The notes beneath the pieces are model-generated. The model made no database searches. It had not been told where the DNA came from and was given only the letters and a program-made list of their open reading frames with translations. Positions 15,218 through 52,160 of a stretch of 52,160 nucleotides of DNA are shown in pieces. The DNA is from a bacterium (GTDB lineage: Bacteria; Bacillota; Clostridia; Lachnospirales; Lachnospiraceae): contig CAVAVU010000111.1 of assembly GCA_963592205.1 (NCBI GenBank), positions 1 through 52,160 on the forward strand, in the 5' to 3' direction. The stretch's first letter is position 1, and each line of letters begins with the position of its first letter. The translations under genes were made by a program, and so were the position numbers.

Positions 15218-15256
15218 ATCTTAACACAAACGGTTAGACAAAAGTAGGACAAAACA
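15218..15256 (-). promoter_or_regulatory. Putative activator-dependent promoter P3: 11-bp-period direct repeat plus extended -10
   Basis: On the + strand tagacaaaagt (15235-15245) and aggacaaaaca (15246-15256). On the minus strand an 11-nt spacer ending TGt precedes TAAGAT (15223-15218). Confidence 0.7.
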
Positions 15257-15267
15257 AGTCAATTCTG

Positions 15268-15311
15268 CAAAAACACAAAACCGATGATCCAGATTTTTCT
15301 GAATCATCGGT
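15268..15311 (-). terminator. Rho-independent terminator ending the T4SS unit
   Basis: Minus strand ACCGATGATTCAGA-AAAA-TCTGGATCATCGGT (14-bp stem with one G-U) followed by TTTGTGTTTTT, 16 nt after the stop of 15328..16260. Confidence 0.85.
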
Positions 15312-15327
15312 CTTGCTATGTATTTTG

Positions 15328-50000: not shown

Positions 50001-52047
50001 TATTACCGATTGTCAATACCAGATTCTTATTCTGATCCATGTATAGTGTACACAGATTGTCTTCCAGAATCAGCGATTCGACCTTCGTGCCATCTTTCTC
50101 TAACTCATGCAGCGTTCGGTATAACTGCATGATGCTGTTAGCATTATCGATGCCATTGTTCAGGATACATTTGGACGCCGGACGTTTCATCAGAAACAGA
50201 TCCGCAATGTTTCTTTTTGTCCCCTGCAGAGATGCCTGCTTTTCTTCTGTGATCTGATCCTGTGATTTTTCAGATTCTGCTGCAGTGACATCTGCTTCCT
50301 TTCTGTTCTGTTCTGCCTCTGCCTGAGCCACTGCTTTCCGCGCTGAAGCTGCGATCCGCTCAGAAAGTGCCTTGTAATCAACCACATGCCGTTCTCTCAG
50401 AGCTGCAAGCTCTCGGAATCCTTTTGCAAAACGTGTATCAGACATTTGAGATGTTACCAGTGCCATCTGTGACCAGTCAGCAGGATCATCGATCATGTTC
50501 TGAATCTTCATTCCACATTCTAGAAGCTTTTTCGACTGTTCATCTGACAATCCCTGCGAAGCAACCTGAGACATGATCACTCTCTGCTGATGCATCAGAC
50601 GGCAGATTTTTTCCAATTTAACAACTCCCTGTGCTACCTGCTGTTCTCTTCCTTCCCACGCCTTCACATCGGCATACTTCTGCATCACGTAGGCACGCGG
50701 TACCGATACACCTCCAACAAGATCCGTAATATAATGTTTTCTCGCATTTTGCAGGAGTTCCAACTTGCCAGCCTTTTGGAATGCATAAGTATCACAATAC
50801 TGCAGGTATTCCTCCTGTATTTTTCTTTTCGCCGCTTCTGTCGTGGCACTTTCATTTTGCATTGCATATACAAAAAGTCGATTCATCAGATTCTTATCCT
50901 TGGTAAAAATGCTGATATCCAACTTCTGATCCTTCTGATAATTCACAGCACAGGAATAGATTCCCTGTAGAAGTGAATACACCGTATCTTTGATTGCAAA
51001 AAGATGTCCCGTTGCAAGTTCTTCCAGTGTTTTGTTGGAAAACCTGACATCCATCCCCTGCTTTTTTCCCTCATCGATAAACTTGCGAAGATTCCGCATC
51101 TGCGTCTTCTTCTGCTGTTTCAGATTATTCACGCGGATCGTGTCATCAAGCATATCAGACACTGCTTCTGCTATCGCAACCTTTTCCGGCTCCTGTCTTT
51201 CTCTGGAACGAAGGATATTGTTCACCATGGATAAGCCCATACTTACTTCATTGATATACAGACGGAACTTATGCATAGAAAGCGGTCGAGTAGTCTCACC
51301 CCGGAGTTCCGGTGACCAGTATATCCTGTGACGTTTCTCTAATACTTTTCTGTATTCCTCTGTATCCTGGATTCCTCTTAATTTCCTACTTATCAACACC
51401 TGCTCTACAGAAATCTTGATCAGATGCTCCAGCATCTTCCGATTATCACGTGTCGCTCTACCGTTCTGGCTGGCTTTGTCGAGAAAATTAATAGCCGTAC
51501 GCAGTTTTCCATTACGCATCTCTAAAGCGTCATCGTTCCACGCAGAGATCGCGCCCACAAAATCATGAAAGGTCAGATCCGACAGGTCCTGTGTTTTGAC
51601 CTGCTGCAGTTTCATCCTCTTATTCTCCACATTTTCCATGAGTCCAAAGATTGTGCGACTCTGCGTCGGATATTCTTTATATCTTTTATCTGGATTCTCT
51701 ATCAGAGTACGAATCGTGCCAAGTCTTCTGTACTGTGCTTTCAAAATCTCCATCGTATCCTCGACCGCTTTGAAACGCTTGCGTCCCAGACGTGATGTCG
51801 GATGCTTGACATCACAGTATAGTCTACATGCATTGATCGCATTAAGCAGATTTTTTTCCATTTCTTCCAGATTCTTACGTGTCTTCTCATCATATTCCCC
51901 AGGATTCACAAGGGTATTCAACGACTGATTGCACTTTGATACGTTAATTCTTACTTTGTGCATCTCTTCACTGTCATTCAGTTCCAACTCCAATACCGGA
52001 TATTTCATCGTTACATTCACTGCTTTTTTTTTCTTTTCTCCTGCCAT
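44020..52047 (-). CDS. Giant ~2675-aa paralog: ABC1/UbiB-type kinase (~47150-48460) plus C39-like peptidase (~45100-45630)
   Basis: The ORF track starts at TTG 52077, but ATG 52047 (MAGEKKKK) after GAAAGGAAAGAG is preferred. Kinase motifs GAGPLMQKFLQ, SLGSASIGEAF, VVIKLVKP, ELDLRKEAQN, YQADLHKDNI and IIDYGN. Peptidase motifs QNTGYGCWSVAL (Cys 45592-45594), KGHYRTIFG and MYNP. Confidence 0.88.
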   Translation of the reverse strand: MAGEKKKKAVNVTMKYPVLELELNDSEEMHKVRINVSKCNQSLNTLVNPGEYDEKTRKNLEEMEKNLLNAINACRLYCDVKHPTSRLGRKRFKAVEDTMEILKAQYRRLGTIRTLIENPDKRYKEYPTQSRTIFGLMENVENKRMKLQQVKTQDLSDLTFHDFVGAISAWNDDALEMRNGKLRTAINFLDKASQNGRATRDNRKMLEHLIKISVEQVLISRKLRGIQDTEEYRKVLEKRHRIYWSPELRGETTRPLSMHKFRLYINEVSMGLSMVNNILRSRERQEPEKVAIAEAVSDMLDDTIRVNNLKQQKKTQMRNLRKFIDEGKKQGMDVRFSNKTLEELATGHLFAIKDTVYSLLQGIYSCAVNYQKDQKLDISIFTKDKNLMNRLFVYAMQNESATTEAAKRKIQEEYLQYCDTYAFQKAGKLELLQNARKHYITDLVGGVSVPRAYVMQKYADVKAWEGREQQVAQGVVKLEKICRLMHQQRVIMSQVASQGLSDEQSKKLLECGMKIQNMIDDPADWSQMALVTSQMSDTRFAKGFRELAALRERHVVDYKALSERIAASARKAVAQAEAEQNRKEADVTAAESEKSQDQITEEKQASLQGTKRNIADLFLMKRPASKCILNNGIDNANSIMQLYRTLHELEKDGTKVESLILEDNLCTLYMDQNKNLVLTIGNTTLNICQSPYAIARFLEADMCANMELYGKDKVTECIREDLAHTIDGESDSRSLTTDMLHDLLKSTANVEKESLVGYATADVARQVLQSLTQKMTAEEVLQNLEDRKNQKKEELKGELRKNGRKVHDIPDNLNDMEVLESIEKMQAQERQQSKVTFAADYHKPQDPAKVGLGWTKEENDIKDFLAELISPKDSWESEITHRTGPADRLRDAIYKHADTIAGLFQHPELLQRMLDRMGLDKLGLANLNILDFFQQLGNNIDNHNENEQLGMNRQIHSLLLRATGLNLDLNEFPELYRALTTCEQQTIGTVIKGLVGGEDDVAKAADALAGIITDKELGEIDQYIQKQIDSIEREKDFISKELDNAVKEIRKPFASQIKGGRRRTNQEKKQLRDAEAKINELTQQHEQRIKECQQRIQQWQVQQLKLNTGRLANGVVGLSAFYKKGISDLRSQIKLNDTLEAVDQFIGDQIGEGFIQIQQNINAQIDKSMGKVDTDIFEEIGDVDVSDMVKKSLSGESGQGLFLKNVLKGYFVQADQQTKRNMVASAIRGLQPSQVDDSVQDQKEMERLREVQMGSLMSGMFRGAGPLMQKFLQGVPTKDMPLSMQMAMDATKSHLNPISRVVVAAQMNSLVEKSEGYIDRIQVEGSLGSASIGEAFLCRIYGPTIAKEGREVVIKLVKPDVRRRMKKEEKFFLDCAEKTDAGMLETIRGQLKVYNDELDLRKEAQNIEYGKIYNMPENVKSEELAEHVVPTANAIMLKKANGDTVGNYYQKTRDRLEELKKQVEENPNQEIVNAALQELSAISYSLKSKHGYLVELATKWISEGLFDSGFYQADLHKDNIMVDDNGVTIIDYGNATKLTEQQRKAIMHMVCAATCGYVDDFVDNYKLVMSEKSQKLYPDIEQELKTRLNSLFMKKGDPGSKILVALTEAQKLGLDLPNSIYNFSLGQVRLNNTIDDSIALLNEVAVKMREVSRYFTSANTKGDILDEYRKLYDAGNSQNAVDDYKYSIQKKLGIKAEEGKTEISDEARQNRVDLLNRLLDSDDTEVQKALLGLPDTSKKLGQVLEEIGKLGKDDPDFRFTLDDLKEGSPHYKLVDTFSRNLVFALTTEKNQEADKKNADEQLNQERFSNFNDIVGNVIWNRLKDAAKLMGASGAKYAMRALKAKSDFDEQQSLINIDQIHSLYTISDKLLVMNQKLSAQNLSAEEITVANGEIAEDLKQIADFNMPKHVKQFILQQLGEADKEKGLSKAMQIGKGYLTRFFGSPKGSQLIYQDDYNRYMKLQADLDIAIKNLGKAEAQIEVQGSEQDADMAVNAGQMLQMDASKSKEIIDNFIKRLNEIRTSANEVDASSPDQTVYDQYSENKLLEDDGAYEYYQYYDDIIMDKDHAKLRETVYDAMNSNDIDTLRELKEQEHTKTQLGRYLDRRIRNISKINKIAEKAGDAHPIGQPKRENGELILEGVKQPECQNTGYGCWSVALSSLLRYRGVDLDQRTIRSYRPDSQAFEKNTIKEANADQPNNISNYTDLIQKVLPYTMVNELQCNEILTEKEAVKMLRECVELALYTHNSPLALQTKGHYRTIFGLQGDTLLMYNPLKRAEEHMPLRDFVKMCGHTEMTDGEMETRYLFKAQWLQDMKLDKHGEPELGEALQEDGASYLGGELTNNNSSYVVSRYFKGFSSGKIGNTKLISYLPSNLKAKGKVLEGYYMDNLKAIADAAEKANVSPNVLNKLKKYPTSWFGLDYLMKKWSRDLKELYQTEGISDNDKQHIRAALEEVKYSAILKEKIKLRKEIDKNLRDMGDLSSEDPTKRIAGTETIEYNPDKQEKLAIMENILKKALYLNNIEKMTPEDIQWLDKLDKDPAFEMEQSEKIKKMMEALNTKSLVVQEMIQQVDPLAGKGVFISKEIPYVRLMHEIEAGRCPDMEKLEQIVAAADRYLETYQKPVVEQNVVNVAKQKIKQQAVNETEKTSVQEEKTEIQQNEIGKTEKKKKRSTVMGAH

Positions 52048-52127
52048 ATTCGTTCTCTTTCCTTTCAAGAGCAACAATTCCAGCTCTTATTCTTTAAAAT
52101 ATTATGCAACATATCATATTTGCAAAT

Positions 52128-52160
52128 AGCATAGCACATTTATACAGACAAAAGTATGAC
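52128..52160 (-). promoter_or_regulatory. Putative activator-dependent promoter P1: 11-bp-period repeat (second copy cut by the window edge) plus extended -10
   Basis: On the + strand cagacaaaagt (52145-52155) then atgac... On the minus strand an 11-nt spacer ending TGc precedes TATGCT (52133-52128). Confidence 0.65.

Follow-up and report, generated by a model that had tools for sequence, protein, structure and literature searches.

Layout of the locus

The window analysed here is an entire contig of 52,160 nt (G000:C111) from a Lachnospiraceae genome of 2.49 Mb that is 91% complete (G000), and it carries a type IV secretion system (T4SS) locus in which a promoter-like element, hereafter the box, occurs three times. 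All 21 long open reading frames (ORFs) lie on the minus strand, and only two of the gaps between genes are wider than 80 bp, one of 151 bp at 15177-15327 and one of 110 bp at 32465-32574. The boxes, all on the minus strand, occupy these two wide gaps (P1 and P2) and the contig end (P3). The P2 unit runs from a VirB2-like pilin gene through a 645-aa gene, the VirD4 gene, a 331-aa gene, the VirB6-like, VirB4 and STAS genes, and a 1549-aa gene to a 310-aa gene. The P1 unit comprises five hydrophilic orphans with a SpoIIE phosphatase gene among them. The P3 unit contains, in order, the genes for two ABC1-kinase giants, an anti-sigma protein, a response regulator, a 261-aa orphan and a LytS-type kinase (Table 1).

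The three sites represent one conserved promoter design, consisting of an 11-bp direct repeat (DR) with a TTTGTC core, an 11-nt spacer ending in TGn, and a TAnnnT -10 element. A first-pass annotation of this DNA had described the architecture shared by the three units, and its coordinates were right. It had also placed the direct repeat at all three sites, which holds in full for P2; however, the upstream unit of P1 is degenerate (7 of 11 positions), and that of P3 is reduced to 5 nt because the window ends with the contig and no other contig overlaps its ends. Predicted transcription start sites lie near 15211 (P1), 32509 (P2) and 52121 (P3).

Table 1 Boxes, genes and other features of the window
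Feature	Position	Strand	Remarks
P1 box	15218..15256	-	DR1 TGTTTTGTCCT 15256-15246; DR2 ACTTTTGTCTA 15245-15235; 11-nt spacer ending TGT; extended -10 TG-n-TAAGAT (TAAGAT 15223-15218); 41 nt before 1471-aa orphan
P2 box	32516..32554	-	two perfect 11-bp units 32554-32533; spacer ending TGA; TG-n-TATACT (TATACT 32521-32516); 51 nt before pilin gene
P3 box	52128..52160	-	DR1 remnant 5 nt; DR2 ACTTTTGTCTG 52155-52145; spacer ending TGC; TG-n-TATGCT (TATGCT 52133-52128); 80 nt before 2675-aa kinase giant
Terminator-like hairpin, 19 pairs	15275..15316	-	closes T4SS unit immediately before P1
VirB2-like pilin	32051..32464	-	PF18895, 48 bits, above cut-off; heads P2 unit
645-aa gene	30088..32025	-	no known family; homologs in most related machine operons
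VirD4 coupling protein	28039..30072	-	61-89% identity across 12 loci; best among plasmid matches listed ~30%
331-aa gene	27047..28042	-	no known family; kept in related machine operons
VirB6-like, Mycoplasma-ICE type	25268..27031	-	NF045848 and NF045889 above cut-off
VirB4 ATPase	21243..25187	-	nearest NF045975 Mbov_0397 family; 540 bits, under 590 cut-off
STAS anti-anti-sigma-type protein	20954..21253	-	within T4SS unit
1549-aa gene	16288..20937	-	signal-peptide-like start; in many machine operons; likely surface part
310-aa gene	15328..16260	-	last gene of machine unit
Two paralogous ~1480-aa hydrophilic orphans	6237..15176	-	candidate cargo
305-aa hydrophilic orphan	5312..6229	-	basic C-tail; candidate cargo
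5TMR-LYT/HAMP/SpoIIE phosphatase	2879..5287	-	within P1 unit
475-aa orphan and 463-aa orphan (cut by contig end)	1..2832	-	
Two ~2670-aa ABC1-type atypical kinase proteins	35993..52047	-	one with weak C39-peptidase-like match; candidate cargo
Anti-sigma-type kinase	35567..35974	-	HATPase_c_2; partner-switch part
Response regulator, 257 aa	34759..35532	-	REC (D57, T85, K105 kept) and OmpR/SARP-type winged helix, short tail
261-aa hydrophilic orphan	33898..34683	-	between regulator and kinase; homologs at same place in relatives
LytS-type membrane histidine kinase	32575..33879	-	PF06580 and HATPase_c, H-box intact; likely cognate sensor

Specificity and conservation of the box

The 10-mer of the repeat alone was within chance, with 7 matches at one mismatch versus 4.9 expected and 12 exact copies in the G000 genome. 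Unlike the 10-mer, the full architecture is beyond chance: it occurred three times in the window and never in 150 Markov-3 simulations, and the scan for motif frequency suggested in the first-pass annotation returned no copy in the remaining 2,433,470 bp of G000. A matrix trained only on 36 sites of relatives ranked the window boxes as the top three sites of the genome (scores 34.8, 29.2 and 28.7); the next-best match scored 16.6 and headed no gene.

The box recurs ahead of different genes in rearranged related T4SS loci, which likewise carry no relaxase in the locus. Genome-wide, 13 sites were found in G253, 12 in G444, 5 in G445 and 3 in G446, with none in the reversed control. Across 401 genomes of the family, the full pattern appeared in five (G000 with 2 sites, G253 with 13, and three singletons), versus 12 single matches of the reversed control. 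The earlier expectation that the pattern would reveal distant genes was borne out in relatives but not in G000, where genome-wide matrix and pattern scans of the 91%-complete genome detected no distal box outside the window contig. More distant loci showed the same geometry with other repeats, namely TTTGTCAT in G146 and TTTGTTGG in G354, G150, G254 and G236. In a metagenome scan, 7 of the 22 matches preceded machine genes or orphan homologs, and about 15 looked unrelated or unplaceable.

A search for tandem cores that did not require a -10 element recovered 43 sites in five genomes, versus 6 in the control. The spacer had been described as exactly 11 nt, which is correct for the three window sites and for 35 of the 43 cores, each followed by TAnnnT; six cores have 10 nt instead. 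Since one of the other two runs off its contig and one lacks a -10, TAnnnT follows a 10-11-nt spacer in 41 of 42 assessable cores. The TG of the extended -10 was mostly present (T in 32 and G in 28 of 36 sites); the -10 of the box resembles TG-n-TATAAT, and no -35 consensus was seen. Standard sigma-70 scans did not call the three promoters and found no excess of promoter-like sites, which fits boxes without a -35.

Some sites in relatives were unusual. Divergent back-to-back boxes were found at G253:C8 36074-36166 and in G444:C153, with one of the two driving a gene for a STAS-phosphotransferase fusion. At G253:C8 61848 and G444:C130 3131, an intact box has no gene within 420 nt and may be the residue of a lost cargo gene. 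The locus of G446 (L004) is labelled as a Bacteroidota species and yet groups with Firmicute loci, so a mis-binned contig is likely.

The locus regulator as candidate reader

The first-pass annotation had proposed a single regulon read by a winged-helix activator, and the locus regulator is still the best candidate, given its fold matches and its co-occurrence with the box. It is the sole member of its family found in G000. A structural model built from a 53-sequence alignment reached a predicted local distance difference test score of 88 (35 for the single-sequence fold), and its best Foldseek matches were full-length DrrD, DrrB, PhoP and VanR. Profile matches of the C-terminal domain were DrrB (E value 0.001), AfsR (0.009) and EmbR (0.024); a PDB search with the single sequence of this domain gave only noise. 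Trans_reg_C was not matched by the window regulator and was matched weakly by 15 of 53 homologs, and the receiver is closest to LytR/BtsR. No BTAD match was listed for the 53 family members, and a seven-helix BTAD is absent because only ~35 residues follow the winged helix. The regulator may therefore work like a SARP, but it is not one, since the full BTAD is missing. A longer opposite-strand frame overlaps the regulator gene in the window.

The box covaries with the regulator: it was present at 10 of 10 T4SS loci with the regulator and at none of eight without it, although two of these eight contigs lack the operon start. The regulator family occurs in 120 of the 401 family genomes and is common without a T4SS. 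Near family regulators, 16 design-type sites were found in 38 kb of intergenic DNA, compared with 3 in 409 kb of background. The regulator and its neighbouring kinase both lie in the third boxed unit, which had been overlooked before. In relatives, a box stands directly before the anti-sigma-regulator genes (G253 and G444) or directly before the regulator gene (G445 and G254). Because the regulator sits in a boxed unit both here and in relatives, autoregulation or feedback is likely. Activation of the boxes by the locus regulator is likely.

The repeat sequence also appears to vary with one residue of the recognition helix. K195 of this helix aligns with T88 of AfsR, and T199 with R92. AfsR R92 contacts the bases at -27 and -38 of the afs box (PMC10936776, PMC11301090). 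With the -10 assumed at -12..-7, the conserved T of our box (after TTG) falls at these two positions. Lysine at position 195 accompanied TGTC boxes in 9 of 12 genomes versus 1 of 29 others, and the pairing was seen in 4 of 7 genomes outside the set used to form the idea. This covariation is suggestive only, because the reversed control of the Lys-class search gave 18 matches in 16 of 41 genomes, so that single matches mean little, and because kin are not independent. A clade of regulators with valine has TGTTGG boxes, and TGTG(A/T)C boxes were present in 5 of 5 genomes of an Asn-x-Arg clade, in two cases as a prediction made in advance; two further TGTG(A/T)C matches remain unexplained.

The secretion machine

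VirB4 matches were found in 15 of the 401 family genomes including G000, one of them a distant 29% match, and another search returned five loci. The VirB6-like query matched none of 20 genomes of the same genus. The four unnamed machine genes gave no family match, VirB1 hydrolase and VirB8 included. No relaxase or integrase was found among the 21 window ORFs, on a contig that is cut at both ends and in a search that did not include MOBT, MOBF and MOBC. Elsewhere in G000, MOBP and MOBV relaxases occur at C132 12564-12965 and C14 27676-28254, neither of them boxed. A T4SS without a relaxase is the usual signature of protein secretion (PMC4027160). The machines of G255, G098, G131 and G288 (L043-L053) branch off more deeply; their VirB4 is shorter, three of these genomes have two VirB6-like genes, and no regulator or box was found in this branch.

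The same class of T4SS lies beside a gene for an extracytoplasmic function (ECF) sigma factor in G200 (G200:C1 73395-97717; L035, L036) and G094 (G094:C213). The associated motif GCAACYTTT-N14-GTATTA has one site in G094 and five in G200, two in the locus and three distal. One distal site directly precedes a hydrophilic orphan, one lies ~800 bp before such a gene, and the third is followed by a 195-aa gene whose product is not hydrophilic. G200, which the VirB4 tree places within the TGTTGG loci, repeats the regulon of machine plus orphans under an ECF sigma factor and a different motif. A regulator swap in G200 and G094 is likely.

Regulon content and candidate cargo

The census of the TGTC class covered 47 sites, three without a gene in reach, which left 44 first genes, all read in the direction of the box and starting 14-175 nt downstream of it. 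Machine parts account for 8 of them, signalling genes for 5, hydrophilic orphans for 25 and other genes for 6. Hydrophilicity comparable to that of these 25 was seen in only 6.5% of 1348 background ORFs. Among 24 of the 25 orphans scanned against Pfam, 19 had no family and 5 had kinase-like matches. In the TGTTGG class, such orphans made up 5 of the 12 first genes. A second boxed array was present in G146.

Homologs of the window orphans are also boxed elsewhere. A 43% homolog of the ~1480-aa orphans is found by itself after a box of its own on a different contig in G253, and homologs of the 463-aa orphan follow boxes elsewhere in G253 and G444. Neither solved structures, the Atlas nor phage families yielded relatives that explain the orphans. 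Several boxed orphans (L023:372-3101, L155, L219 and L226) showed PI3/PI4-kinase or Fam20C-like matches near the cut-off.

Hydrophilic, basic C-tails serve as transport signal in several T4SSs (PMC8740702). In 10 of 21 complete orphans, the C-tail surpassed most of the same protein in both hydrophilicity and basic character, compared with 17% of 148 hydrophilic controls, a signal that is modest against these controls (p ~0.02 per measure) and strong against all ORFs. In genomes without the T4SS (L090, L098, L101, L248, L251 and L253), family boxes often precede genes for proteins of 870-2860 aa with signal-peptide-like starts. The boxed orphans of T4SS genomes, in contrast, are signal-less.

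The earlier conclusion that the orphans belong to the T4SS was stated too strongly. A shared promoter raises the odds that an orphan is cargo but is no proof of cargo: the regulon also includes non-effectors, and the box occurs with another machine. That most orphans are T4SS substrates is slightly more likely than not.

Interpretation and rival explanations

We consider it probable that this single promoter design is bound by the locus regulator, which would in this way turn on the machine, the unit that encodes the regulator itself and the hydrophilic orphans as likely cargo. The LytS-type kinase would phosphorylate the regulator at D57, and two protomers, side by side with one on each repeat, would recruit the primary-sigma polymerase as AfsR does. 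Since the regulator, kinase and anti-sigma genes lie in the P3 unit, positive feedback may follow, tuned by the partner-switch proteins. Orphan genes newly acquired at any chromosomal position could enter the regulon by way of a box, and VirD4 might take up their products via the hydrophilic, basic C-tail.

Several findings weigh against this reading. Three of the 12 Lys-class genomes and six Asn-bearing genomes outside the Asn-x-Arg clade have no match, and 31 of 47 family-regulator loci lack a box within 2.5 kb under the strict pattern. Relatives are not independent, since the TGTC T4SS loci all fall into a single clade and G253 is near-identical to G444. As to function, it is unlikely, though still a serious prospect, that the regulon is real and the orphans are co-regulated passengers, either cytoplasmic or otherwise exported, with the machine moving DNA by means of a relaxase in trans or serving cell contact. 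Such passengers would fit the non-cargo members, which are the 6 'other' of 44 first genes in the TGTC class and 4 of 12 in the TGTTGG class, as well as the regulator, kinase, anti-sigma and SpoIIE genes, a MatE transporter, and membrane or surface proteins. They would also fit the modest tail effect and the relaxases on other contigs of G000, G253, G444, G445, G354 and G150. The families of these relaxases, however, differ between genomes, and those of G000 are unboxed. Further support for passengers comes from G413, which has no VirB4 match. Its contractile injection cluster (G413:C1 12900-69200; L108, L205, L206), with sheath, tubes, gp25, baseplate J, Pvc16 and AAA ATPase, carries the same kinase-regulator-partner-switch cassette, two TTTGTC boxes and a homolog of the ABC1-kinase giant, so that neither the box nor the kinase giant is T4SS-specific. 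Against passengers, T4SS genomes box signal-less orphans whereas the four T4SS-free genomes inspected box large proteins with signal-peptide-like starts, and a comparable pairing occurs in G200 and G094 with a different regulator.

The remaining alternatives concern the box itself. A different reader of the repeats is improbable: an alternative sigma factor freed by the partner switch would suit the anti-sigma, STAS and SpoIIE genes of the locus and the ECF sigma factor that serves the G200 locus, and an ordinary OmpR paralog would suit the two weak OmpR-like paralogs in G000. However, the -10 resembles TG-n-TATAAT, no sigma gene is present among the 21 window ORFs, the ECF promoter of G200 is a different motif, and the repeat sequence tracks the regulator helix. 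Quite improbable is a regulator that represses extended -10 promoters working without a -35. TG-extended -10 elements are able to drive transcription alone, and the repeats cover the -35 region. The placement is nevertheless the same as that of SARP activator boxes in the promoters described in PMC10936776, and a spacing that varies by no more than 1 nt at 41 of 42 sites suits contact with polymerase. At 44 of 47 sites the downstream gene reads the same way as the box, and core machine and regulator operons are among those with a box in front, which argues against the very improbable case that the repeats are not promoters but cassette insertion scars or integrase arm-type sites, which they presumably resemble. 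Distal orphans that are single inserts between unrelated genes, and the ~15 of 22 metagenome matches not tied to the system, would agree with such sites; the fixed -10 and the lack of an integrase among the window ORFs would not.

The box makes it possible to name dozens of candidate substrates for a machine that had no known cargo; most of them have no known family and five are kinase-like. It also points to the regulator through which the system would be turned on for study. For the regulator family, which occurs in 120 of 401 genomes, it provides the layout of a binding site together with a candidate rule of recognition, and it gives a candidate Gram-positive protein-exporting T4SS a testable cargo list. 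Tentatively, and with rather less confidence, we propose that a gut Clostridia lineage may have converted a VirB2-bearing T4SS, similar to that of a Mycoplasma integrative and conjugative element (ICE), into a chromosomal injector dedicated to proteins. The effector repertoire of this injector would be open-ended, as in Legionella, and its control would lie with a plug-in REC-winged-helix switch that has a one-residue DNA code and was reused for a contractile injection system. If this is true, the cargo of each genome could be listed from its sequence.

Comparison with known systems

A literature search in which most subscription papers were out of reach returned no description of the regulator family, the T4SS or the motif. 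Among the nearest precedents are the SARPs (AfsR on the afs box, EmbR), with which the window regulator shares an OmpR-type winged helix. Their sites resemble the box in having a pair of 11-bp direct repeats that cover the -35 region and keep a constant distance to the -10 (PMC10936776). Unlike a SARP, the window regulator has an N-terminal receiver with a LytS-type kinase and lacks a seven-helix BTAD, and the system differs in repeat sequence, in its Firmicute host and in having secretion genes as targets. OmpR/PhoB regulators (DrrB, DrrD, PhoP, PmrA) share the receiver plus winged helix, provide the best fold matches and likewise use tandem repeats one turn apart. They differ in that the kinase next to our regulator is of the PF06580 LytS type rather than HisKA, Trans_reg_C is weak and limited to 15 of 53 members, and the receiver is closest to LytR/BtsR.

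The machine shares VirB4, VirB6-like and VirD4 proteins of the Mbov/MMCAP2 type with the Mycoplasma ICE-type (MPF FATA) T4SSs, and a VirB2-like pilin (PF18895) with the pilin-bearing T4SSs of Patescibacteria. According to a December 2025 review (PMC12857230), Patescibacteria are the sole monoderm exception with VirB2, Streptococcus suis 89K is the first Gram-positive effector translocator, and dedicated Gram-positive effector-delivery T4SSs are a long-standing open question. In contrast to the Mycoplasma ICE, Patescibacteria and S. suis 89K systems, the present locus has its own signalling cassette, and no relaxase or integrase was found in it.

In Legionella, PmrA and CpxR control T4SS genes together with effector genes scattered over the genome (PMC6989116). 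The PmrA/CpxR and LciR regulons resemble the present system in the winged-helix two-component control of a T4SS and scattered genes. Here, in contrast, the host is Gram-positive, the machine is FATA-like and the cargo is candidate cargo, and the regulator is encoded in the locus and swapped between lineages.

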